A stretch of 52,859 bases of DNA from a virus (Duplodnaviria > Heunggongvirae > Uroviricota > Caudoviricetes): IMG/VR virus record IMGVR_UViG_2909303794_000004. One strand, given 5' to 3'. Positions 4,770 through 51,621 of this stretch are shown in pieces. The notes below the pieces were generated by a model that saw only the letters and a program-made list of their open reading frames with translations, made no database searches and was not told where the DNA came from. The translations under genes and the position numbers were made by a program. Position 1 is the first letter of the stretch, and each line of letters starts with the position of its first letter.

Positions 4770-4827
4770 AAAAAGGGCGGCAGAGCAGTCACGGAGTAAA
4801 ACTGATACCGCCAAACGTCACCAGAAA
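4770..4827 (-). ncRNA. dicF: DicF small regulatory RNA with intrinsic terminator
   Basis: minus-strand sequence UUUCUGGUGACGUUUGGCGGUAUCAGUUUUACUCCGUGACUGCUCUGCCGCCCUUUUU matches remembered DicF, including GC stem and U tail; located between ydfC and dicB. Confidence 0.8.
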
Positions 4828-8898: not shown

Positions 8899-9225
8899 AT
8901 GACTAAAAATACACGTTTTTCCCCCGAGGTCCGTCAACGGGCAGTTCGTATGGTTCTGGAAAGTCAGGGCGAATATGACTCTCAATGGGCGGCAATTTGT
9001 TCCATTGCCCCAAAGATTGGCTGTACACCAGAGACTCTGCGTGTGTGGGTTCGTCAGCATGAGCGGGATACCGGGAGTGGTGATGGTGGACTCACCACCG
9101 CTGAACGTCAGCGTCTGAAAGAGCTGGAACGTGAAAATCGTGAACTGCGCCGCAGTAACGATATCCTTCGCCAGGCTTCCGCTTATTTTGCGAAGGCGGA
9201 GTTCGACCGCCTCTGGAAAAAATAA
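8899..9225 (+). CDS. IS3-family transposase OrfA (108 aa)
   Basis: [50 protein letters not shown]… matches remembered IS629 OrfA. Confidence 0.9.
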
Positions 9226-10112
9226 TGCCGCTGCTGGATAAGCTGCGTGAGCAGTACGGGGTCGGACCGGTATGCAGTGAACTGCATATTGCCCCGTCAA
9301 CGTATTACCACTGTCAGCAACAGCGACATCATCCTGATAAACGCAGTGCCCGTGCTCAGCGCGATGACTGGCTGAAGAGAGAGATACAGCGCGTATACGA
9401 TGAAAATCATCAGGTGTACGGTGTGCGTAAAGTCTGGCGCCAGTTGTTACGCGAAGGTATCAGGGTGGCCAGATGTACAGTGGCGCGCCTCATGGCGGTT
9501 ATGGGACTTGCCGGTGTTCTCCGGGGTAAAAAGGTCCGTACTACCGTCAGCCGGAAAGCCGTTTCCGCAGGCGACCGCGTAAACCGTCAGTTCGTGGCAG
9601 AACGTCCTGACCAGCTGTGGGTGGCTGATTTTACTTACGTCAGCACATGGCAGGGCTTCGTCTATGTGGCGTTCATCATTGATGTGTTTGCCGGATGTAT
9701 CGTGGGGTGGCGAGTCTCATCGTCTATGGAAACGACATTCGTGCTGGATGCACTGGAGCAGGCGTTGTGGGCCCGTCGGCCGTCCGGCACAGTCCATCAC
9801 AGTGATAAAGGTTCTCAGTATGTATCACTGGCCTATACGGAGCGACTAAAAGAAGCAAAACTGCTGGCATCAACAGGGAGTACAGGTGACTCGTATGACA
9901 ACGCGATGGCGGAGAGCATCAATGGTCTTTACAAAGCGGAGGTAATACACCGTAAGAGCTGGAAAAACCGTGCAGAAGTGGAACTGGCCACACTCACGTG
10001 GGTGGACTGGTATAACAATCGACGATTGCTGGGAAGGCTGGGTCATATCCCTCCGGCAGAAGCAGAAAAAGCTTATTATGCTTCCATCAGAAACGATGAT
10101 CTGGCAGCCTGA
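9225..10112 (+). CDS. IS3-family transposase OrfB (DDE domain)
   Basis: 295-aa ORF overlapping orfA in the -1 frame near an A-run, typical of IS3-family OrfAB. Confidence 0.9.
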   Translation: MPLLDKLREQYGVGPVCSELHIAPSTYYHCQQQRHHPDKRSARAQRDDWLKREIQRVYDENHQVYGVRKVWRQLLREGIRVARCTVARLMAVMGLAGVLRGKKVRTTVSRKAVSAGDRVNRQFVAERPDQLWVADFTYVSTWQGFVYVAFIIDVFAGCIVGWRVSSSMETTFVLDALEQALWARRPSGTVHHSDKGSQYVSLAYTERLKEAKLLASTGSTGDSYDNAMAESINGLYKAEVIHRKSWKNRAEVELATLTWVDWYNNRRLLGRLGHIPPAEAEKAYYASIRNDDLAA

Positions 10113-11500: not shown

Positions 11501-11855
11501 ATACAGCGAACTCCATTGGTTTAGTTGGATATTTACTGTGCTGGACAAAAACGGTTTGCGGGGAAATCTTAGTTAAGTAGAATGACTGCGGGTGCTTGAG
11601 GCTATCTGCCTCGGGCATGGACACCAACGGCAGATAGAGAAAAGCCCCAGTTAACATTACGCGTCCTGCAAGACGCTTAACATTAATCTGAGGCCAATTT
11701 CATGCTAGACACATGTAGGTTAGCCTCTTACGTGCCGAAAGGCACGGAGAAGCAGGCTATTGTTAACACCAAGCTGTAATGTCCCCTTTGAACCATTCTA
11801 AAATGTCCCCAGACAATTCTCTGGGGGATTTTTCATAATCAAAGAGACTGTTACG

Positions 11856-20917: not shown

Positions 20918-21217
20918 AAAAATTCCTTAATACTGATAACTTGGCGCACTATACACACGTTCCTGAAGAAAGCTATAGTTTTTTGATGGGGTTGAAGATG
21001 GCTGGATGTCTAAAATAAACATTGCTTCATATGTTCAACTATGCGTTAATGATTGCGTCGGTTTGAAGAACAGACGATATACGAAGTAGTTTACTAAAGC
21101 AGTTCTCATTTCAGGTGTTATTCACTTATTCCTTCTTTGAGTCTCTCCAATTAAGTACGAAGTCGTTTCTGTTATGCAAACCATTTATGCCGAAAGGCTC
21201 AAGTTAAGGAATGTAGA

Positions 21218-21433
21218 ATGTCAAATAAAATGACTGGTTTAGTAAAATGGTTTAACGCTGATAAAGGTTTCGGCTTTATTTCTCCTGTTGATGGTAGTAA
21301 AGATGTGTTTGTGCATTTTTCTGCGATTCAGAATGATAATTATCGAACCTTATTTGAAGGTCAAAAGGTTACCTTCTCTATAGAGAGTGGTGCTAAAGGT
21401 CCTGCAGCAGCAAATGTCATCATTACTGATTAA
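21218..21433 (+). CDS. cspB: cold-shock protein CspB (71 aa)
   Basis: [67 protein letters not shown]… near-identical to remembered CspB. Confidence 0.9.
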
Positions 21434-21714
21434 AATTCATCGCTCGTCTGTATACGATAACGAAGAAGGCTGATGCCTGAGTAGAGATACGGACAGAGTA
21501 GTGAATATTGGATCTCTTTAATAAAAAGTAAGGAGGTCCAATACATGAAACAATGGCTAGCATATTTGGCAAAATCTTAATCAGGAAAAGTATGCTAACC
21601 ATTGTGGTGAAGTGCAGGTTTGCTGCATGAATAGTTTTACAGCAGAAGCTAACTGCTGGCATGGCAAAACAAAGTGCGTAAGTGGATGACTCCCACAAAA
21701 AGCACCACAATCTC

Positions 21715-22874: not shown

Positions 22875-23765
22875 TCAGGCTGCCAGATCATCGTTTCCGA
22901 TGGAAGCATAATAAGCTTTTTCTGCTTCTGCCGGAGGAGTATGGCCCAGCCTTTCCAGCAATCGTCGATTGTTATACCAGTCCACCCACGTGAGTGTGGC
23001 CAGTTCCACTTCTGCACGGTTTTTCCAGCTCTTACGGTGTATTACCTCCGCTTTGTAAAGGCCATTGATGCTCTCCGCCATCGCGTTGTCATACGAGTCG
23101 CCTGTACTTCCTGTTGATGCCAGTAATCCGGCTTCCTTAAGCCGCTGTGTGTAGGCCAGCGATACATACTGAGAACCTTTATCACTGTGATGGACTGTGC
23201 CGGACGGTCGACGGGCCCATAACGCCTGCTCCAGAGCATCCAGCACAAATGTCGTTTCCATAGACGATGAGACCCGCCACCCCACGATGTATCCGGCAAA
23301 CACATCAATGATGAACGCCACATAGACGACCCCCTGCCATGTGCTGACGTAAGTAGAATCAGCCACCCACAACTGGTCAGGACGTTCTGCCACGAACTGA
23401 CGGTTTACGCGGTCGCCTGCGACAACGGCTTTCCGGCTGATGGTCGTACGGACCTTTTTACCACGGAGAACACCGGCAAGTCCCATAACCGCCATGAGAC
23501 GTGCCACAGTGCATCTGGCCACTCTGATACCTTCCCGTAACAACTGACGCCAGACTTTACGCACACCGTATACCTTGTGATTTTCATCGTATACGCGCTG
23601 TATCTCTTTCTTCAGCCAGTCATCGCGCTGCGCACGGGCACTGCGTTTATCCGGATGATGTCGCTGTTGCTGACAGTGGTAATACGTTGACGGGGCAATA
23701 TGCAGTTCGCTGCATAGCGGTCCGACCCCGTACTGCTCACGCAGCTTATCCAGCAGTGGCATCAT
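22875..23765 (-). CDS. IS3-family transposase OrfB
   Basis: 296-aa ORF homologous to 9225-10112. Confidence 0.9.
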
Positions 23766-24088
23766 TTTTTCCAGAGGCGGTCGAACTCCGCCTTCGCAAA
23801 ATAAGCGGAAGCCTGGCGAAGGATATCGTTACTGCGGCGCAGTTCACGATTTTCACGTTCCAGCTCTTTCAGACGCTGACGTTCAGCGGTGGTGAGCCCG
23901 CCATCACCGCCTCCGGTATCCCGCTCATGCTGGCGTACCCAGACACGCAGAGTCTCCGGTGTACAGCCAATCTTTGGGGCAATGGAACAAATTGCCGCCC
24001 ACTGTGAGTCATATTCGCCCTGACTTTCCAGAACCATACGAATCGCCCTCTGACGGACTTCGGGGGAAAAACGAGTATTTTTAGTCAT
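23762..24088 (-). CDS. IS3-family transposase OrfA
   Basis: 108-aa ORF, 2 substitutions relative to copy 1. Confidence 0.9.
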
Positions 24089-25055: not shown

Positions 25056-25416
25056 GGTAATATTAAATCGGAACATTTACATCGCGGAATGTAAAATTTG
25101 AATAAAAAGGACTCTTCCATGAGCCAAAATTCCTGAAATCTTAAGGGTAAGATAAAAGGTCTTAATCAGAATGACACGTTTTATTAATAAATAAAGCTAT
25201 TCTTTCATTGCTGTGTTTTTCTTTACAAAAGTAATCCTTGCTATGGGTGGTTAATCATGCGTTAATGGTGTTCTGGTTTGTTACAAATTTATCTGAAGCA
25301 GTCATTGTTATAATTTTATTATTTGTACCTCTTGAGATTTCCTTGTTGGTTTTTCTCTCTGATATTTTTTTCGGACCATTCTGCCCAAGGGCTAATTTCT
25401 TCAAAAGGTAATAATT

Positions 25417-25629
25417 ATGTCTAACAAAATGACTGGTTTAGTGAAATGGTTTAACCCTGAAAAAGGTTTTGGTTTCATCACGCCGAAAGATGGCAGCAAA
25501 GATGTGTTTGTCCATTTCTCAGCAATTCAGAGCAACGATTTCAAAACATTAACTGAGAATCAGGAAGTTGAATTTGGTATTGAGAACGGACCTAAAGGTC
25601 CTGCCGCTGTTCATGTAGTGGCGCTTTGA
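25417..25629 (+). CDS. cspI: cold-shock protein CspI (70 aa)
   Basis: [70 protein letters not shown] matches remembered CspI. Confidence 0.9.
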
Positions 25630-25835
25630 GGTAGACAATATTACAAACCATATTCACTTTAGATGCCCGTGTTGTCATGGTTCCCAGTATAGAACATCAT
25701 CTTTTGATGTTTCTGACATGAATCCTTTCGGGGCAAAATGTATCTTTTGTAAATCAATGATGATTACATTTGATAATATTTCACAATACTTAAATGCCAG
25801 CCGTCTGTCGTTGGATTTAAAAAAGTGAAAATGAA

Positions 25836-30975: not shown

Positions 30976-32483
30976 TGGCAATTCTTGATGATGTGATTGG
31001 CGTTTTTTCACCAGGATGGAAAGCGGCAAGGCTGCGTTCCCGTGCGGTGATCCAGGCTTATGAGGCCGTAAAAACGACGCGGACACACAAAGCCCGACGG
31101 GAGAACCGAACTGCCGACCAGTTAAGCCAGTACGGGGCCGTGTCGTTACGTGAGCAGGCCCGTTACCTTGATAACAACCACGATCTGGTCATTGGTGTAT
31201 TTGACAAGCTGGAAGAACGGGTGGTGGGGAAAAACGGGATTATTGTCGAGCCACATCCGGTATTACGCAATGGGGCCATTGCCCGTGATCTGGCAGCGGA
31301 GATACGTACCCGATGGAGTGAATGGTCTGTCAGTCCGGAGGTCACCGGGCAGTTTACCCGTCCGATGCTGGAACGTCTGATGCTGCGTACCTGGCTGCGC
31401 GATGGTGAGGTGTTTGCCCAGATGGTTTCCGGGCGCATAAACAGCCTGACGCCTTCTGCCGGTGTTCATTTCTGGCTGGAGGCGCTCGAGCCAGACTTTA
31501 TTCCCATGACCAGTGATGAGAGCAACAGGCTGAATCAGGGCGTGTTTGTTGATGACTGGGGGCGTCCCGAAAAATATCTGGTGTATAAAAGCCGTCCCGT
31601 ATCCGGACGGCAGATGGAAACCAAAGAAGTTGATGCAGAGCGAATGCTGCATCTTAAATTTGTTCGCCGTCTGCACCAGATGCGCGGGACGTCTTTATTG
31701 TCCGGTGTGCTGATCCGCCTCAGTGCCCTGAAAGAATATGAAGATTCTGAGCTGACTGCAGCAAGGATCGCCGCTGCTCTGGGGATGTACATCCGGAAAG
31801 GCGACGGGCAGAGCTATGAACCGGATGGTAATGGCAGAAAGGAGAATGAACGTGAGCTTACCATTCAGCCGGGCATTATTTACGACGATCTGAAACCCGG
31901 CGAAGAAATCGGAATGGTGAAGTCGGATCGCCCCAATCCTAACCTTGAAACTTTTCGTAATGGTCAGTTGCGTGCCGTGGCGGCGGGCAGTCGTCTGAGT
32001 TTTTCCAGTACAGCGCGCAACTATAACGGCACTTACAGCGCCCAGCGTCAGGAGCTGGTTGAATCTACTGATGGCTACCTGATCCTGCAGGACTGGTTTA
32101 TTGGTGCCGTCACCCGCCCGATGTATCGTGCATGGCTGAAACAGGCTGTGGCATCCGGTGTTATCAGGCTACCCCGCGATCTTGACCGTTCTTCACTGTA
32201 TACCGCGGTGTATTCCGGACCAGTGATGCCGTGGATTGACCCTGTTAAGGAGGCTGAGGCCTGGAAAATCCAGATTCGTGGTGGAGCGGCGACAGAATCA
32301 GACTGGGTACGTGCTGGTGGTCGTAATCCGGATGATGTCAAACGTCGGCGCAAGGCCGAAATTGATGAAAACCGCAAGCTGGATCTGGTATTTGATACCG
32401 ATCCGGCCAGTGATAAAGGAGGCAGTAGTGCCGCAACGAAACGACAGGAGCCGCAGCACACCGACGACCAGTCCGAAGAATAA
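30975..32483 (+). CDS. portal protein (gpB-like)
   Basis: about 500-aa ORF; start overlaps the W stop (TGATG); canonical position. Confidence 0.85.
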   Translation: MAILDDVIGVFSPGWKAARLRSRAVIQAYEAVKTTRTHKARRENRTADQLSQYGAVSLREQARYLDNNHDLVIGVFDKLEERVVGKNGIIVEPHPVLRNGAIARDLAAEIRTRWSEWSVSPEVTGQFTRPMLERLMLRTWLRDGEVFAQMVSGRINSLTPSAGVHFWLEALEPDFIPMTSDESNRLNQGVFVDDWGRPEKYLVYKSRPVSGRQMETKEVDAERMLHLKFVRRLHQMRGTSLLSGVLIRLSALKEYEDSELTAARIAAALGMYIRKGDGQSYEPDGNGRKENERELTIQPGIIYDDLKPGEEIGMVKSDRPNPNLETFRNGQLRAVAAGSRLSFSSTARNYNGTYSAQRQELVESTDGYLILQDWFIGAVTRPMYRAWLKQAVASGVIRLPRDLDRSSLYTAVYSGPVMPWIDPVKEAEAWKIQIRGGAATESDWVRAGGRNPDDVKRRRKAEIDENRKLDLVFDTDPASDKGGSSAATKRQEPQHTDDQSEE

Positions 32484-32496
32484 TTCCTGGTTCAGG

Positions 32497-34455
32497 ATGC
32501 AGGCTGGTCACCAGAGTGACGCGGATATTTATATTTATGACGAGATTGGTTTCTGGGGTGTTACAGCGAAGCAGTTTATCAGTGATCTGAATGCACTGGG
32601 CGATATCACCCACATTAATCTCCATATTAATTCACCGGGTGGCGATGTCTTTGAAGGCATCGCCATTTTTAATGCGCTGAAAACACATGGTGCGTCCATT
32701 ACCGTTTATGTCGACGGTGTGGCGGCGTCAATGGCGTCGGTCATTGCGATGGTAGGAAACCCGGTCATTATGCCGGAAAACACCTTCATGATGATTCATA
32801 AACCATTTGGCTTTACGGGCGGTGATGCGGAGGACATGCGCACCTATGCCGACCTGCTCGATAAAGTTGAGGCGGTTCTGTTACCCGCTTATGCACAGAA
32901 AACCGGGAAAACCACCGATGAAATTGCTGCCATGCTGGCGGATGAGACCTGGATGTCCGGTGCCGAATGTCTGGCACATGGATTTGCTGATCAGGTAACG
33001 CCAGCCGTTAAGGCAATGGCATGTATTCAGTCAAAACGTACAGAGGAATTTAAAAAGATGCCGGAATCCATTCGAAACATGATTACTCCGCCACGCAACA
33101 GTGCTCCACGCGTACAGGATAATGAACCTGAAGCCTCCCGGACGCCAGTGCAGGCAGCAGCACCCGTGGTGGATGAAAACAGCATCCGTGCGCAGATACT
33201 GGCAGAGCAAAAAGCGCGTGTAAACGGTATTAATGATCTGTTTGCCATGTTTGGCGGGCGTTATCAGACGCTGCAGGCTCAGTGTCTTGCCGATCCTGAA
33301 TGTTCGCTGGAGCAGGCCCGTGAAAAGCTGTTGAACGAGATGGGGCGCGAGTCCACGCCATCCAATAAAAATACCCCAGCTCATATTTATGCCGGTAACG
33401 GTAATTTTGTGGGGGACGGGATTCGCCAGGCGCTGATGGCGCGTGCCGGATTTGAAAAAACCGAACGTGATAATGTTTACAACGGGATGACCCTGCGTGA
33501 ATATGCCCGTATGTCACTAACTGAGCGGGGTATTGGGGTTTCCGGTTATAACCCGATGCAGATGGTCGGTGCGGCGTTCACACACAGTACGTCTGACTTC
33601 GGTAATATTCTGCTGGATGTTGCGAACAAAGCCATTCTGCAGGGCTGGGAAGATGCCCCTGAAACCTATGAACAGTGGACGCGGAAAGGTCAGTTGTCTG
33701 ATTTTAAAATTGCCCATCGTGTGGGTATGGGTGGCTTCAGTGCTCTGCGTCAGGTGCGTGAAGGGGCGGAATATAAATACGTCACCACCGGAGATAAACA
33801 GGCCACTATTGCACTGGCGACCTATGGCGAGCTGTTCAGTATCACCCGTCAGGCCATTATCAATGATGATCTGAATATGCTGACCGATGTCCCGATGAAA
33901 CTGGGCCGTGCGGCGAAATCCACTATTGCCGATCTGGTTTATGCCATTCTGACGTCTAACCCGAAAATCTCCACAGATAATGTAAGTCTGTTCGATAAAG
34001 CGAAACATGCAAACGTACTGGAGAGCGCAGCAATGGACGTGGCATCGCTGGATAAAGCCCGCCAGTTGATGCGCGTTCAGAAAGAGGGGGAGCGTCATCT
34101 GAATATTCGTCCTGCGTTCGTACTGGTACCGACGGCGATGGAGTCTGTTGCTAACCAGGTCATTCGCTCCTCAAGTGTCAAGGGGGCTGACATTAACGCC
34201 GGTATTATTAACCCGGTGAAAGATTTTGCGACCGTTATTGCAGAGCCTCGTCTTGATGATAACAGCCAGACCACCTTCTACCTGGCTGCGTCAAAAGGCT
34301 CCGATACGATTGAAGTGGCTTATCTCAACGGTGTGGATACGCCATATATTGATCAGATGGAGGGCTTCAGTGTGGATGGCGTGACAACGAAAGTGCGTAT
34401 TGACGCCGGTGTCGCGCCAGTTGATCACCGCGGTCTGGTGAAATGTACGGCGTAA
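32497..34455 (+). CDS. fused prohead protease (ClpP-like serine protease) - scaffold-like linker - major capsid protein
   Basis: one uninterrupted frame; N-terminal ClpP-type motifs (INSPGGDVFEG…GVAASMASVIA), then a helical linker, then a capsid-like C-terminal domain of about 300 aa; start 32497 is the first ATG after the portal stop. Confidence 0.75.
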   Translation: MQAGHQSDADIYIYDEIGFWGVTAKQFISDLNALGDITHINLHINSPGGDVFEGIAIFNALKTHGASITVYVDGVAASMASVIAMVGNPVIMPENTFMMIHKPFGFTGGDAEDMRTYADLLDKVEAVLLPAYAQKTGKTTDEIAAMLADETWMSGAECLAHGFADQVTPAVKAMACIQSKRTEEFKKMPESIRNMITPPRNSAPRVQDNEPEASRTPVQAAAPVVDENSIRAQILAEQKARVNGINDLFAMFGGRYQTLQAQCLADPECSLEQAREKLLNEMGRESTPSNKNTPAHIYAGNGNFVGDGIRQALMARAGFEKTERDNVYNGMTLREYARMSLTERGIGVSGYNPMQMVGAAFTHSTSDFGNILLDVANKAILQGWEDAPETYEQWTRKGQLSDFKIAHRVGMGGFSALRQVREGAEYKYVTTGDKQATIALATYGELFSITRQAIINDDLNMLTDVPMKLGRAAKSTIADLVYAILTSNPKISTDNVSLFDKAKHANVLESAAMDVASLDKARQLMRVQKEGERHLNIRPAFVLVPTAMESVANQVIRSSSVKGADINAGIINPVKDFATVIAEPRLDDNSQTTFYLAASKGSDTIEVAYLNGVDTPYIDQMEGFSVDGVTTKVRIDAGVAPVDHRGLVKCTA

Positions 34456-35144: not shown

Positions 35145-35723
35145 ATGAAGGGGCTTGAGAATGCCATCCGCAATCTGAACAGCCTTGATACCCGTATGGT
35201 GCCACAGGCCAGCGCATGGGCGATAAACCGTGTGGCACAGAAAGCGGTCTCGGTTGCCACCCGGCAGGTTGCCGGGAATACCGTTGCGGGAGATAACCAG
35301 GTGAAAGGGATCCCCCTGAAACTGGTACGTCAGCGTGTCCGGGTGTTTAAAGCCAGTCCGTCAGGAAAAATGACGGCCAGGATCCGCGTTAACCGGGGCA
35401 ATCTGCCTGCCATTAAGCTGGGGACAGCCCGGGTCAGACTGGCCCGGCGTGGTGGAAAACTGCAGTACCGTGGCAGTGTGCTGAAGGTGGGTAAATATCT
35501 TTTCCGGGATGCGTTTATTCAGCAACTGGCGAATGGTCGCTGGCATGTGATGCGGCGTATTGATGGCAAAAATCGTTACCCCATTGATGTGGTGAAAATC
35601 CCGCTGTCCGGACCGCTGACACAGGCATTTGAAGATGCCCGCGACCGCATCATTGCTGCGGAAATGCCGAAACAGCTGGGGTATGCACTGAAACAACAAC
35701 TGAGGTTATGGCTGACCCGATGA
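35145..35723 (+). CDS. Z: tail completion protein gpZ-like (192 aa)
   Basis: MKGLENAIRNLNSL…GRWHVMRRIDGKNRYPIDVVKIPL… resembles lambda Z; same length. Confidence 0.85.
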   Translation: MKGLENAIRNLNSLDTRMVPQASAWAINRVAQKAVSVATRQVAGNTVAGDNQVKGIPLKLVRQRVRVFKASPSGKMTARIRVNRGNLPAIKLGTARVRLARRGGKLQYRGSVLKVGKYLFRDAFIQQLANGRWHVMRRIDGKNRYPIDVVKIPLSGPLTQAFEDARDRIIAAEMPKQLGYALKQQLRLWLTR

Positions 35724-36121
35724 ACCGACATACACAAATCCGCCAGGTCGTACTGGCACGCCTTCGGGAACAGTGTGGAGACAGCGCCACGTTTTTTGAC
35801 GGGCTTCCGGCATTTGTTGATGCGCAGGAACTGCCTGCCGTGGCGGTGTGGCTGAGTGATGCTCAGTACACCGGAAAAATGACGGATGAAGATGACTGGC
35901 AGGCTGTTCTGCATATTGCCGTCTTCATCCGGGCACAGGCACCGGATTCAGAGCTGGATATGTGGATGGAGAGCACCATTTTTCCTGCCCTGAATGATAT
36001 ACCGGCACTTTCCGGACTCATCGACACCCTGATCCCACTCGGTTTTAACTATCAACGTGATAATGAGATGGCCACCTGGGCGATGGCGGAAATCACGTAC
36101 CAGATCACGTACACGAATTAA
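35708..36121 (+). CDS. U: tail terminator protein gpU-like
   Basis: …ATFFDGLPAFVDAQELPAVAVWLSDAQYTG…DSELDMWMES…IPALS… resembles lambda U; true start may be the ATG at 35720 overlapping the Z stop. Confidence 0.85.
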   Translation: MADPMNRHTQIRQVVLARLREQCGDSATFFDGLPAFVDAQELPAVAVWLSDAQYTGKMTDEDDWQAVLHIAVFIRAQAPDSELDMWMESTIFPALNDIPALSGLIDTLIPLGFNYQRDNEMATWAMAEITYQITYTN

Positions 36122-36131
36122 GGAGGTGGTA

Positions 36132-36875
36132 ATGACCACACCAAATCCACTGGCAAAGACGAAAGGTGCGGGGACGACGTTCTGGATGTATACCGGCAAC
36201 GGCGATGCGTTTGCGAATCCTTTGTCGGACACTGACTGGCTGCGTCTTGCGATGGTGAAGGATCTGCAACCTGGCGAAATGACCGCTGATGCAGAAGATG
36301 ACACTTATCTCGATGATGAAGATGCAGACTGGAAAACGACAACCCAGGGGCAGAAATCCGTCGGTGATACTTCGGCGACGCTGGCCTGGCGTCCGGGTGA
36401 CAGCGGACAGAAAAAACTGGTTCAGTTGTTCGACTCCGGTGAAGTCTGCGCGTTTCGTATCAAATATCCCAACGGTACTGTTGATGTTTTCCGTGGCTGG
36501 CTGAGTTCACTGGGTAAAACCATTGCCTCAAAAGACGTGATGACCCGCACCGTGAAAATCAGCGGTGTGGGGCGTCCATATCTGGCAGAGGAGGGCACTG
36601 AAACCGTGGGCGTTACCGGGCTGACGGTGGCACCGGCATCCGCCAGTGTCAATGTGGGAGCAACCACCACGCTGACCTTTACAGTAAAACCTGACGGAGC
36701 CAGTGACAAAGCGATCAGTGTGCATTCGACAGATCCACAGACTGCCACGGTGACCCTGAACGGGCTTGTGGCCACGGTGAAAGGCGTGAAGCAGGGCAGT
36801 GTCAGCATTGTGGGCATGACTTCTGACGGCGATTTTGTGGCAGTGGCTACGGTGGCTGTCAGCGCCGCAGGTTAA
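36132..36875 (+). CDS. V: major tail protein gpV-like with C-terminal Ig-like domain
   Basis: MTTPNPLAKTKGAGTTFWMYTGNGDAFANPLSDTDW…YLDDEDADW… resembles lambda V; ATG after AGGAGG. Confidence 0.9.
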   Translation: MTTPNPLAKTKGAGTTFWMYTGNGDAFANPLSDTDWLRLAMVKDLQPGEMTADAEDDTYLDDEDADWKTTTQGQKSVGDTSATLAWRPGDSGQKKLVQLFDSGEVCAFRIKYPNGTVDVFRGWLSSLGKTIASKDVMTRTVKISGVGRPYLAEEGTETVGVTGLTVAPASASVNVGATTTLTFTVKPDGASDKAISVHSTDPQTATVTLNGLVATVKGVKQGSVSIVGMTSDGDFVAVATVAVSAAG

Positions 36876-36895: not shown

Positions 36896-36920
36896 GCCCC
36901 GGTTATCCGGGGCTTTTTTG
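36896..36920 (+). terminator. intrinsic terminator-like hairpin between V and G
   Basis: GCCCCGGTTATCCGGGGCTTTTTT. Confidence 0.5.
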
Positions 36921-36935
36921 CAGGTGGAGAACATG

Positions 36936-37322
36936 ATGTTTCTGAAACAGGGCACGTTTAATTATGAAAAACAGTCCGTGGTGCTCAGTGAGCTGTCCGG
37001 GCTGCAGAGAATTGAATATCTGGCGTTTGTTCAGCAGCGAACGGCAAAGTTTGATGCCGAAGAGGGAGAACTGCCGGAGGCTGAACGACAGATTGCTTTT
37101 CTGCGGATGGGGATGGATATCAATGCCTGGCTGGTTTCCCGCTCACTGTGGAATGCGGAACAGTCTCAGGATGTTGAGACGCTTTGCGCATCCGTTATTA
37201 CAACATGGTCGTATGATGCCCTGGGTGCGGGGGCGGAGATGGTTCTGTCGCTGAGCGGTATGGGGGCCATTGAGAATGCCGGGGATTTGGAGCATGAGGC
37301 GCTGACGCCGGAAAAGTCCTGA
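36936..37322 (+). CDS. G: tail assembly chaperone gpG-like
   Basis: MFLKQGTFNYEKQSVVLSELSGLQRIEYLAFV… resembles lambda G. Confidence 0.85.
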   Translation: MFLKQGTFNYEKQSVVLSELSGLQRIEYLAFVQQRTAKFDAEEGELPEAERQIAFLRMGMDINAWLVSRSLWNAEQSQDVETLCASVITTWSYDALGAGAEMVLSLSGMGAIENAGDLEHEALTPEKS

Positions 37323-37330
37323 CGCGGGAA

Positions 37331-37660
37331 ATGCAGTTTGTCATGCGGCTTGCCCGGGAGTTCAGGCGAGCAGACTGGCGGCGGATGCTGTCGGAAATGT
37401 CGGCTACTGAGCTTGGTGAGTGGGGCGATTATTTCCGGATGCAGAGCTTCAGTGATGTGTGGATGGATGCGCAGTTTGCCTCGCTGAAGGCATTGATCGT
37501 GAGAATGGTGTCCGGCAGCAGTGATGCTGCGGTGGCTGATTTCAGCCTTTTACCGGAAGAGAACGGGATACCGGAGCGAACGGACGAAGAACTGATGCAT
37601 CTTGGGGAAGGTATTTCCGGAGGTGTGCGTTATGGACCAGATAGCCAACCTGGTCATTGA
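37331..37660 (+). CDS. T: gpT-like frame, expected to be expressed as a G-T fusion by programmed -1 frameshift
   Basis: -1 frame relative to G is open from 37298; candidate slip region GGAAAAG at 37310-37316 just before the G stop; lambda G/GT precedent. Confidence 0.7.
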   Translation: MQFVMRLAREFRRADWRRMLSEMSATELGEWGDYFRMQSFSDVWMDAQFASLKALIVRMVSGSSDAAVADFSLLPEENGIPERTDEELMHLGEGISGGVRYGPDSQPGH

Positions 37661-40600
37661 TTTGGGGATTGATGCGGCAGAGTTTAAAAATGAAATTCCC
37701 CGTATCAAAAACCTTCTGAATGGTGCAGCCAGCGATGCAGAACGGTCTTCTGCCCGTATGCAGCGTTTTATGGAGCGTCAGACTCAGGCCGCCCGGCAGA
37801 CAATGCAGGCGGCTTCTTCGGCTGCAACAGCCGCATCCGTCCATGCGCAGACGGTGGAGAAGAGCGCACAGGCTCATGAACGCATGGCCCGCGAGGTGGA
37901 GCAAACCCGCCAGCGTATGGAGGCACTGAGCCAGAAAATGCGCGAGGAACAGGCGCAGGCCATGGCTCTGGCGGAGGCTCAGGATAAAGCGGCTGCCGCG
38001 TTTTATCGTCAGATTGACAGTGTGAAACAAGCCAGTGCGGGGCTGCAGGAATTACAGCGTATTCAGCAGCAGATCCGACAGGCCAGAAACAGTGGCGGGA
38101 TTGGTCAGCAGGATTATCTGGCGCTGATTTCTGAGGTTGCTGCGAAAACCCGTGTTCTTACGCAGGCTGAGGCAGAGGCTACCCGACAGAAAGTGGCGTT
38201 TATCCGTCAGCTTAAAGAGCAGGCAACCCGCCAGAATCTTTCTTCTTCTGAGTTGCTTCGTGCTAAGGCTGCCCAGCTGGGGGTAAGCAGTGCTGCAGAA
38301 GTGTATATCCGCAAAATGGAGCAGGCAGGAAAAGCCACGCATTCGCTGGGTCTGAAAAGTGCAGCGGCCCGCCAGGAGATAGGCGTTCTGATAGGTGAAC
38401 TGGCTCGCGGCAATTTAGGTGCGCTGAGGGGATCCGGGATAACGCTGGCTAACCGTGCCGGATGGATAGACACACTGATGTCACCGAAAGGCATGATGCT
38501 GGGCGGGGTTATTGGCGGTATTGCCGCGGCCGTCTATGGTCTGGGTAAAGCCTGGTATGATGGTCAGAAGGAGGGGGAAGAATTTAACCGCCAGTTGTCG
38601 CTGACGGGGCATTATGCCGGAGTCACTGCCGGGCAGCTGTGGACGCTCAGTCGTGCTATTTCCGGGAATGGTATTACGCAACATGCTGCAGCCGGTGCGC
38701 TGGCTCAGGTGGTGGGGAGTGGTGCATTTCGTGGAAACGATATCGGTATGGTGGCGAGAGCTGCCGCACAGATGGAGCGATCGGTTGGCCAGTCGGTCAG
38801 CGATACCATAAATCAGTTTAAGCGGCTGAAGGATGATCCTGTAAATGCCGCGAAGGCTCTGGACAATGAGCTGCATTTTCTTACTGCCACTCAGCTTGAA
38901 CAGATACGCGTCCTTGGGGAACAGGGGCGGTCCAGTGATGCGGCACGGATAGCCATGTCTGCACTGGCGGAGGAAACCGGTCGGCGTACTGCGGATATTG
39001 ATAATAACCTCAATGCGCTGGGTAGTACGCTGCAAACCTTGTCTGACTGGTGGAAGCAGTTCTGGGATGCGGCCATGAATATTGGTCGTGAAGATTCGCT
39101 GGATGCGCAGATTGCCACTTTGCAGGAGAAAGTGTCGCGGGCGAAAAGACTCCCCTGGACGGCATCATCTTCTCAGGTTGAATACGATCAGCAGCGTCTT
39201 AACGATCTTCAGGAGAAAAAACGCCAGAAGGATTTGCAGGATGCAAAAGAGCAGGCAGAGCGGAATTATCAGGAGCAACAGAAACGCCGTAATGCTGAAA
39301 ATGCTGCACTGAACCGGATGAATGAAACGGAAGCAGCACGACATCAGCGTGAAATTGCGCGTATTAATGCCATGCAGTACGCCGATCAGGCTGTCAGGGA
39401 TGCGGCGATACAACGTGAAAATGAACGTTACGAGAAAGCCCAGGCATCCGGTAAGAAAAAAACACGCGAAACCCGTAATGATGAGGCCACCCGGTTATTG
39501 CTGCAGTACAGTCAGCAACAGGCACAGGTGGAAGGACAGATTGCTGCTGCCAGACAGTCAGCAGGCATTGCCACGGAAAGGATGACAGAAGCGCATAAAC
39601 AGCTTCTGGCTCTGCAGCAGCGCATCAGCGACCTGGACGGGAAAAAACTGACGGCAGATGAAAAGTGTGTGCTGGCCCGTAAAGATGAACTGATTCAGGC
39701 ACTGACGCTACTGGATGTAAAACAGCAGGAGCTTCAGAAACAGACGGCACTCAACGATCTGAAGAAAAAAACAATTCAGCTGACCAGTCAACTGGCTGAA
39801 GAAGAGCGCGCTCAGCGTCAGCAACATGACCTGGATATCGCCACGGTGGGTATGGGTGATCAGCAGCGACAGCGATATCAGGTACAACTGAGTCTTCGCC
39901 AGAAATACCAGCAACAGCTGGAGCAGTTGAGGCGGGATAGTGAGCAGAAAGGGACATATAACACGGATGACTACAGAAAGGCCGAGCAGGCGCTGACGGA
40001 GAGCCTGAACCGACAACTGAATGAGAATCGCCGTTACTGGCAACAGCTTGAAGTTGTGCAGGGTAACTGGAAAAACGGTGCCATGCGGGCGTTTCAGAAT
40101 TTTACGGCAGATGCGGATAATGCGGCAGGAACTGCTGAACAAATGTTTACATCGGCATTCAGCAGTGCGAGCGACGGGCTGGCGACATTCTGTACCACTG
40201 GCAAACTCAATTTCAAATCCTTCACCTCTTCTCTGTTGTCTGATATGGCAAAAATTATGGCACAGATGGCTATGATGCAGGCGGTAAAGGGCGTCGGTTC
40301 TTTATTCGGCATCACGGCTAATGCTGATGGCGGTGTTTATCAGTCGGCTGATTTGAGTCGCTACAGTGGCACGGTGGTTAACCGTCCGACGTTTTTTGCT
40401 TTTGCAAAAGGCGCGGGTGTGATGGGGGAAGCTGGACCTGAAGCCATTCTGCCACTGCGTCGTGGTGCTGACGGTAAGCTGGGGGTTGTGGCGGATATTG
40501 GGGGTTCAGGTATGGCGAGGTTTTCCCCGCAGTACAACATCGAGATCAATAACGATGGCACGAACGGGCAGATAGGTCCGGCTGCCCTGAAGGCGGTTTA

Positions 40601-40682
40601 TGACCTCGGGAAAAAAGCGGCAGCGGACTTTATGCAACAGCAGGCCCGTGATGGTGGTCGGTTAAGTGGAGCATATCGGTAA
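37632..40682 (+). CDS. H: tail tape-measure protein gpH-like
   Basis: about 1016 aa, long coiled-coil Q/A/R-rich sequence; between G-T and M. Confidence 0.9.
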   Translation: MDQIANLVIDLGIDAAEFKNEIPRIKNLLNGAASDAERSSARMQRFMERQTQAARQTMQAASSAATAASVHAQTVEKSAQAHERMAREVEQTRQRMEALSQKMREEQAQAMALAEAQDKAAAAFYRQIDSVKQASAGLQELQRIQQQIRQARNSGGIGQQDYLALISEVAAKTRVLTQAEAEATRQKVAFIRQLKEQATRQNLSSSELLRAKAAQLGVSSAAEVYIRKMEQAGKATHSLGLKSAAARQEIGVLIGELARGNLGALRGSGITLANRAGWIDTLMSPKGMMLGGVIGGIAAAVYGLGKAWYDGQKEGEEFNRQLSLTGHYAGVTAGQLWTLSRAISGNGITQHAAAGALAQVVGSGAFRGNDIGMVARAAAQMERSVGQSVSDTINQFKRLKDDPVNAAKALDNELHFLTATQLEQIRVLGEQGRSSDAARIAMSALAEETGRRTADIDNNLNALGSTLQTLSDWWKQFWDAAMNIGREDSLDAQIATLQEKVSRAKRLPWTASSSQVEYDQQRLNDLQEKKRQKDLQDAKEQAERNYQEQQKRRNAENAALNRMNETEAARHQREIARINAMQYADQAVRDAAIQRENERYEKAQASGKKKTRETRNDEATRLLLQYSQQQAQVEGQIAAARQSAGIATERMTEAHKQLLALQQRISDLDGKKLTADEKCVLARKDELIQALTLLDVKQQELQKQTALNDLKKKTIQLTSQLAEEERAQRQQHDLDIATVGMGDQQRQRYQVQLSLRQKYQQQLEQLRRDSEQKGTYNTDDYRKAEQALTESLNRQLNENRRYWQQLEVVQGNWKNGAMRAFQNFTADADNAAGTAEQMFTSAFSSASDGLATFCTTGKLNFKSFTSSLLSDMAKIMAQMAMMQAVKGVGSLFGITANADGGVYQSADLSRYSGTVVNRPTFFAFAKGAGVMGEAGPEAILPLRRGADGKLGVVADIGGSGMARFSPQYNIEINNDGTNGQIGPAALKAVYDLGKKAAADFMQQQARDGGRLSGAYR

Positions 40683-51046: not shown

Positions 51047-51621
51047 TGGCATTCAGAATGAGTGAACAACCACGGACCATAAAAATTTATAATCTGCTGG
51101 CCGGAACTAATGAATTTATTGGTGAAGGTGACGCATATATTCCGCCTCATACAGGTCTGCCAGCAAACAGTATCGATATTGCACCGCCAGATATTCCGGC
51201 AGGCTTCGTGGCTGTTTTCAACAGTGATGAGGCATCGTGGCATCTCGTTGAAGATCATCGGGGTAAAACGGTTTATGACGTGGCTTCCGGCGACGCGTTA
51301 TTTATTTCTGAACTCGGTCCGTTACCGGAAAATGTTACCTGGTTATCGCCGGGAGGGGAATATCAGAAGTGGAACGGCACAGCCTGGGTGAAGGATACGG
51401 AAGCAGAAAAACTGTTCCGGATCCGGGAGGCGGAAGAAACAAAAAACAGCCTGATGCAGGTAGCCAGTGAGCATATTGCGCCGCTTCAGGATGCTGCAGA
51501 TCTGGAAATTGCAACGGAGGAAGAAATCTCGTTGCTGGAAGCATGGAAAAAGTATCGGGTATTGCTGAACCGTGTTGATACGTCAACTGCACAGGATATT
51601 GAATGGCCAGCACTGCCGTAG
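51046..51621 (+). CDS. tfa: tail fibre assembly protein Tfa (191 aa)
   Basis: start overlaps the stf stop; size and position as lambda tfa. Confidence 0.85.

Follow-up and report, generated by a model that had tools for sequence, protein, structure and literature searches.

In phage lambda, the tail genes run in the order V-G-T-H, and T, which lies in the −1 frame relative to G and has no conserved start, is reached by ribosomes that slip at the heptamer G_GGA_AAG, as described by Levin, Hendrix & Casjens (1993) and Xu, Hendrix & Duda (2004, 2013, 2014), cited here from PMC5009743. The T domain acts within the resulting fusion protein GT, and the G:GT ratio is about 30:1 (PMC5009743). A fusion made at a few per cent of the level of G, and needed to assemble the tail, is among the features that define this class (Xu et al. 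2004). Two other phages carry the heptamer GGAAAAG at the corresponding place: in N15 (genes 14/15; NC_001901 10027-10033) it is annotated as 'slippery sequence for -1 translational frameshift', and phi80 (genes 14/G-T; FN582354 10194-10200) has the same slip annotation together with a joined coding sequence for gpG-T. The G and T genes of the Salmonella prophages Gifsy-1, Gifsy-2 and Fels-1 are annotated as homologues of lambda gpG and gpT, and in the Gifsy records T is said to belong to G 'by translational frameshifting'. Here we analyzed the equivalent G/T overlap in a 52,859-nucleotide stretch of DNA from a tailed virus (Caudoviricetes; IMG/VR record IMGVR_UViG_2909303794_000004), which we call the window and in which G_GAA_AAG occupies positions 37310-37316. 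Sequence comparison makes it highly probable (about 0.9) that this locus is a programmed −1 frameshift site of a lambda-type tail chaperone pair, carried by an Escherichia coli prophage of the mEp460/cdtI type.

Reading frames and proposed slip heptamer of the G/T overlap

Two overlapping open reading frames (ORFs), G and the T frame (37298-37660), are flanked by the tail tube gene on one side and the tape measure gene on the other, the arrangement that characterizes the lambda class; all features of this region are on the plus strand. G (36933-37322) encodes a 129-aa tail assembly chaperone (PF06894 Phage_TAC_2, 1.6e-39), named 'phage tail assembly chaperone G' in RefSeq. It begins at ATG 36933 behind the Shine-Dalgarno (SD) sequence GGTGGAG (36923-36929), the Prokaryotic Genome Annotation Pipeline (PGAP) taking the adjoining ATG 36936 instead, and closes with the codons GAG GCG CTG ACG CCG GAA AAG TCC TGA, the stop occupying 37320-37322. 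Shifted by −1 from G, the T frame stays open between 37298 and its own stop at 37658-37660. Because a TGA in the −1 frame (37295-37297) closes it upstream of 37298, a productive −1 shift is confined to the 25-nt G/T overlap (37298-37322), that is, to the last 8 sense codons of G. The preliminary description of this DNA had read the frames in the same way.

Within the overlap, the sole slippery heptamer in phase with G is G_GAA_AAG at 37310-37316, with Glu127 (GAA) as the P-site codon and Lys128 (AAG) as the A-site codon. The other in-phase heptamers of the overlap (G_GCG_CTG, G_CTG_ACG, G_ACG_CCG, G_CCG_GAA and G_TCC_TGA) are not slippery. A shift at this site would join G to a 114-aa T segment (37316-37660; VLTREMQF...GPDSQPGH; PF06223 Phage_tail_T, 5.1e-15), giving a predicted GT protein of 242 aa, join(36933..37316,37316..37660). 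The window contains 15 copies of GGAAAAG where 8.7 would be expected, so that the heptamer by itself is not significant and the case rests on its context and conservation. The first three positions (G, G and A) break the X_XXY_YYZ rule, whereas positions 4-6 (AAA) and 7 (G) are canonical. In the phase of the G frame, GA A_AAG fits the class of Z_ZZN tetramers and NNA_AAG hexamers. A lambda-like GGGAAAT at 37326-37332 was rejected as irrelevant to the shift, since it sits past the G stop.

The proven lambda site, GCG GGA AAG TGT, and CCG GAA AAG TCC of the window stand at the same place, and the predicted slip falls on the homologous Lys (...SAGK|VFDGELSF in lambda, ...TPEK|VLTREMQF in the window). 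Past this Lys, the alignment pairs lambda K|VFDGELSFALKLAREM with window K|VLTREMQFVMRLAREF. When the GT proteins of the window, lambda, Gifsy-1, Gifsy-2 and Fels-1 were aligned, K128 and E133 were invariant and V/A129 and L/F130 were conserved. The window also shares with lambda the gene order, the Pfam families, a T in the −1 frame without a conserved start, the A_AAG part of the slip site and the lack of a detectable downstream structure. Unlike lambda, in which the P-site codon is GGA (Gly) and re-pairs perfectly, the window has GAA (Glu), which would re-pair with a G·U wobble in the middle position. The G stop lies 5 codons past the heptamer in lambda but only 1 codon past it here, and the T part is 144 aa with a C-terminal extension in lambda but 114 aa without one in the window. 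The two GT proteins are 35% identical.

N15 and phi80 have the identical GGAAAAG in the same phase and at the same position as the window. They differ from it in having GCG rather than CCG as the preceding codon, a G stop 5 codons on, no upstream GAGG and no equivalent of the ATG at 37331, and the GT protein of phi80 is only ∼37-38% identical to that of the window. The closest loci outside the mEp460/cdtI group are those of Gifsy-1, Gifsy-2 and Fels-1 (67-70% nucleotide identity). These read CCG GAA AAG YCC TGA, with the stop 1 codon past the heptamer as in the window, and carry, 9-12 nt before the heptamer, an SD-like AGGA or GAGG, but CTG (Leu) stands in place of ATG 37331. The G-T segment itself is 97.8-99.1% identical to those of phages phi458, Ayreon, mEp460 and cdtI, and was found in 1843 of 5426 complete E. 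coli genomes (about one third).

The locus has the features by which the lambda G/GT class is defined, as far as these are testable here, and departs only from the strict X_XXY_YYZ rule. The earlier proposal of a lambda-like G/T frameshift is borne out by the gene identities, the gene order, the frame relation and the position of the heptamer, and is supported by the comparison with known systems.

Conservation of the heptamer among lambda-type G/T loci

The census comprised 161 lambda-type G/T loci drawn from IMG/VR, from GTDB genomes and from phages in GenBank. In each we located the in-phase heptamer, the G stop and the start of the open T frame. Flanking sequence sufficed in 154 loci, and clustering these at 93% identity around the site gave 39 clusters. 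The frame relation was checked in 151 loci, and in every one T was in the −1 frame. At the homologous Lys junction, GGAAAAG was present in 30 of the 39 clusters and the GGGAAAG of lambda in 4, the remainder having GGCAAAA (2 clusters), AAAAAAG, CCCAAAA or GGGAAAA (1 each). GGAAAAG is therefore the normal slip site of the lambda-type G/T family, and GGGAAAG is a minority form. The preliminary description had named GGAAAAG at 37310-37316, not the lambda heptamer, as the slip site, and this choice stands: the heptamer is the only slippery one in phase and is conserved in relatives. Its label 'non-canonical' holds with respect to the X_XXY_YYZ rule, but not within the family, where most clusters have GGAAAAG and the N15 and phi80 records already mark it as the slip sequence.

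The census also yielded several observations on how the site varies. Canonical heptamers occur at the same junction in some Shiga toxin (Stx) phages, with A_AAA_AAG in L164 (Stx2d) and L166 (Stx1a), and in Vibrio phage HY01 (L167), with C_CCA_AAA; the slip site has been swapped repeatedly among family members while its position was retained. In five clusters from Providencia, Kluyvera and Ewingella prophages (L107, L141, L095, L097 and L125), a TAG stop of G abuts the heptamer (GGAAAAG TAG, GGCAAAA TAG or GGGAAAA TAG), a 'shifty stop' layout in which slow termination may act as a stimulator. Another set of G-T matches (L127-L133 and L135-L139) came from short, low-coverage contigs labeled Neobacillus, Oceanobacillus, Pseudomonas, Kitasatospora, Shewanella, Leeuwenhoekiella, Enterococcus and others. 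Their scores were near-identical and their codons were the same where checked, and they are almost certainly contamination of assemblies with lambda control DNA.

The 30 GGAAAAG clusters are diverse, with a median anchored identity of 0.51 outside the heptamer. The codon before GAA is GCG in 12, CCG in 10 and CTG in 5 of them, and TTG, GTG or ACG in the rest, and these encode five amino acids. The first base of the heptamer is thus the synonymous third position of six codon types, yet it is G in 30/30 clusters. Its information content is 2.0 bits, compared with 0.02-0.54 bits at neighboring third positions. Given the frequency of G at the third position in the codon families concerned (0.26-0.56), the approximate chance of an invariant G, taken as the product over the six codon types only, is 0.0026. 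Nor was GAG ever found for GAA, or AAA for AAG, at the site in these clusters, whereas elsewhere in the same G genes the counts are 265 GAA, 188 GAG, 115 AAA and 74 AAG. Among 90 close relatives of the window, the region from −120 to +159 contained 41 polymorphic sites, none of them in the heptamer, and GGAAAAG was present in 90/90. In the cluster alignment, no conservation of synonymous sites was seen outside the heptamer. These comparisons indicate that the whole heptamer, including its synonymous first G, is under selection.

The alignment also records where the coding constraint changes. Third positions of frame 0 are the least-conserved phase before the heptamer, and those of frame −1 take their place from the first block past it onward, so that protein-coding constraint changes frame at the heptamer. 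A separate observation concerns GA at 37296-37297 (−14 and −13), part of a Glu/Asp codon five before the heptamer. It is kept in 29 of the 30 GGAAAAG clusters in an otherwise variable G tail, and the constraint could act on the protein or on the mRNA.

Proposed slip mechanism and possible other routes to T

In the mechanism that we propose, most ribosomes would read ...CCG GAA AAG TCC TGA and release the 129-aa G, while a small fraction would slip back by 1 base with tRNA-Glu on GAA in the P site and tRNA-Lys on AAG in the A site. Re-pairing of tRNA-Lys from AAG to AAA would be cognate and perfect, and that of tRNA-Glu from GAA to GGA would consist of a G-C pair, a G·U wobble in the middle and an A-U pair. 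Both of these tRNAs carry mnm5s2U34 in E. coli. The next codon would be GTC (Val), and translation would continue in the −1 frame through the T domain to TGA 37658-37660, giving the 242-aa GT with the predicted junction ...ALTPEK|VLTREMQF.... As in lambda, both proteins would be expected to bind H, the tape measure protein, with the T domain recruiting the tube protein V. The low slip frequency would set the G:GT ratio, and a weak slip site fits a need for a low GT:G ratio such as that of lambda (∼1:30; PMC5009743).

Among tetramers, A_AAG shifts most readily in E. coli (in the hierarchy A_AAG > U_UUY > ...; PMC4066793), NNA_AAG hexamers such as CGA_AAG are in natural use (PMC5009743), and the efficiency of A_AAG and NNA_AAG sites is low to moderate (PMC5009743, PMC4066793). 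In a reconstituted E. coli system, where it served as a weakly slippery sequence, G GAA AAG shifts to the −1 frame, though less than G GGA AAG does (PMC6924986). The G_CGA_AAG of IS1222 and the A_CGA_AAG of Bacillus subtilis cdd (Licznar 2003, Sharma 2014) resemble the window site in having the tRNA-Lys AAG-to-AAA core and a P site without canonical re-pairing (PMC5009743, PMC4066793). Unlike at such NNA_AAG sites, conservation in the window and its relatives extends to the base 5′ of the hexamer, which suggests near-cognate re-pairing in the P site.

No downstream stimulator was detected. The predicted structure of 37317-37400 (minimum free energy −30.6 kcal/mol) was no better than that of shuffled sequences (z = −0.63), positions +7 to +66 of the 39 cluster representatives, lambda included, had a mean z of about 0 and no common hairpin, and Rfam gave no match in the G-T region. 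The window therefore lacks the hairpin or pseudoknot 5-9 nt past the slip site that marks dnaX and insertion sequence (IS) elements. The A_AAA_AAG of dnaX is likewise a −1 site ending in A_AAG in E. coli (PMC6924986), but it is a far stronger heptamer, and its shift leads to a truncated product rather than to the C-terminally extended fusion predicted in the window. Upstream, an SD-like GAGG at 37296-37299, with a 10-nt spacer to the heptamer, is a candidate 5′ stimulator, and a second SD-like 4-mer, GGAG, lies at 37289-37292. In cassettes of the dnaX/IS type such a sequence stands 6-17 nt before the slip site, and the SD-like element of dnaX has a similar spacing of 10 nt. SD-like 4-mers were found at −21 to −6 in 15 of the 39 clusters, compared with 13.5% of other 16-nt windows of G, a comparison confounded by the fact that this region encodes Glu/Asp; lambda, N15 and phi80 have no upstream SD-like element. 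Modulation of the shift by GAGG is possible. Position 37300 (−10) is polymorphic, with C in 35 and T in 55 of the 90 close relatives and C in the window. The T form changes GAG GCG to GAG GTG and the SD-like GAGG to GAGGTG, a longer match to the anti-SD sequence 10 nt before the slip site.

The same GT protein would arise if only tRNA-Lys slipped, on A_AAG, either in the A site or, before TCC is decoded, in the P site, without re-pairing of tRNA-Glu. The rank of A_AAG among E. coli tetramers and the natural CGA_AAG-type hexamers speak for such a slip, and the stop that abuts the heptamer in five clusters would fit a P-site slip at a slow A site. This explanation predicts, however, that the first base of the heptamer is free to vary, whereas it is an invariant, synonymous G across six codon families and is replaced only where the whole heptamer type changes (AAAAAAG, CCCAAAA). 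From the conserved first G we infer that P-site re-pairing matters, and we regard a slip of tRNA-Lys alone as possible but doubtful. The fuller proposal, that G_GAA_AAG is predominant and selected in the G/T genes of Enterobacterales, that tRNA-Glu truly re-pairs on GGA and that the site is a genuine tandem heptamer outside X_XXY_YYZ, stands in our estimate at about even odds. In principle, the 25-nt productive window would also permit a shift at another codon within 37298-37322, or transcriptional slippage on the A run. That run is only 4 nt long, and known slippage-prone runs comprise at least ∼7 identical bases. Re-pairing is possible at none of the other heptamers and tetramers in phase within the overlap, and the lack of synonymous conservation outside the heptamer points the same way; such an origin of the fusion is scarcely credible.

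The preliminary description had offered translation of T from its own ATG as the alternative that would do without a frameshift. An ATG in the T frame at 37331-37333, the start of T in public annotations, lies 8 nt past the G stop, so that a free 109-aa T might be made, for example, by termination-reinitiation after TGA 37320-37322. The entire Pfam T domain (residues 35-110 of the −1 ORF) is downstream of this ATG, and a separate 109-aa T appears in public records on at least 1000 contigs and is so annotated in GenBank and RefSeq. The codon aligned to it, however, is ATG in only 2 of the 39 clusters and CTG in 22, the rest having CGN, CTT or other codons, and no alternative start was seen among the cluster sequences listed. 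The only SD-like bases before the ATG are GGGA at 37326-37329, which at 1 nt are too close to serve as an SD sequence. The −1-frame codons from the heptamer to the ATG are conserved as protein, a free T would leave the selected heptamer with its synonymous G unexplained, and in lambda the T domain acts within GT. With the ATG unconserved, the upstream −1 residues conserved and the SD-like bases too near, independent initiation is not the conserved route to T. It was rejected as the main route because the ATG is absent from 37/39 clusters, and the suggestion that T in the window is simply made free from this ATG is very improbable. The ATG is probably an incidental Leu-to-Met codon.

Some considerations nevertheless weigh against the programmed frameshift. 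Some free T may be made by termination-reinitiation in this lineage, given an ATG 8 nt past the G stop. The slip features recorded for GGAAAAG in N15 and phi80 are annotations and not direct evidence of a fusion protein. In addition, the clusters are not phylogenetically independent, which makes the conservation statistics approximate.

Gene neighborhood, annotation and meaning

From the ORF list and Pfam matches, the tail block of the window has the lambda order Z-U-V-G-T-H-M-L-K. Z (35145-35723) and U (35708-36121) are followed by the V homologue (36132-36875), the major tail tube protein gene with a C-terminal Big_2 domain (Phage_TTP_12, 1.2e-66; Big_2, 2.4e-11), whose counterpart in the mEp460 record is named 'major tail protein'. 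V directly precedes G. The start of the H homologue, the tape measure protein gene (37632-40682; TMP_2, 2.7e-49; Tape_meas_lam_C, 7.5e-25; also identified from the mEp460 annotation), overlaps the 3′ end of T, and M, L and K come after H.

In the gap between V and G, a terminator scan detected a strong intrinsic-terminator-like hairpin with a T-run (GCCCCGGTTATCCGGGGC TTTTTT) at 36896-36919, the hairpin proper, with 7 G-C pairs, spanning 36896-36913. The mEp460 and Ayreon records list a rho-independent terminator here, and that of N15 has an analogous feature. This terminator may lower the transcription of G, T and H relative to V.

Farther from the G/T genes, the ORF at 32236-34455 (plus strand; 739 aa) combines a ClpP-type protease (residues 95-255) with a major capsid protein (residues 441-736) and, judged by these domains, is a gene in which prohead protease and capsid are fused. 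The part of the window before the tail genes is a patchwork of prophage and IS sequences. Two full-length Rfam matches of about 120 bits each to the ALIL pseudoknot, a −1 frameshift stimulator of IS3-family transposase genes, lie at 9180-9296 (plus strand) and 23691-23807 (minus strand). They point to two inverted IS copies flanking ∼14 kb, and so to two further programmed −1 frameshift sites. Other Rfam matches were to the small RNA DicF, the sok antitoxin RNA, two cspA-type thermoregulator leaders and the IS009 RNA, with coordinates, as listed, of 4775-4826 (minus strand), 11590-11761, 21057-21449, 25272-25656 and 51389-51587 (all plus strand).

The site itself is already known as an ordinary phage recoding site, with GGAAAAG annotated in N15 and phi80, and it adds nothing new to the G/GT paradigm. 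In searches of the literature on frameshifting, slippery sequences and phages, only Peng et al. (2019) proved relevant to GGAAAAG, and Bock et al. (2019) does not cover second-position changes in the P site. As a by-product, the census identified G_GAA_AAG as the dominant form with a selected first base, which makes these loci a natural test case for G·U re-pairing in the P site during −1 frameshifting and gives frameshift predictors a reason to accept G_GAA_AAG. If the heptamer is indeed read in tandem, motif-based finders would miss it, and in vitro work would have treated as a one-tRNA, nearly non-slippery control what is a natural slip site.

For the phages themselves, the consequence is one of annotation. 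The mEp460/cdtI lineage and RefSeq give T as a separate 109-aa 'phage tail assembly protein T', and an exact look-up of the 242-aa GT fusion in a collection of 15 billion proteins found it not present. This GT fusion is probably the functional product, and the annotation of T as a free 109-aa protein in mEp460, cdtI and about one third of complete E. coli genomes would then be corrected to a frameshift product of G.

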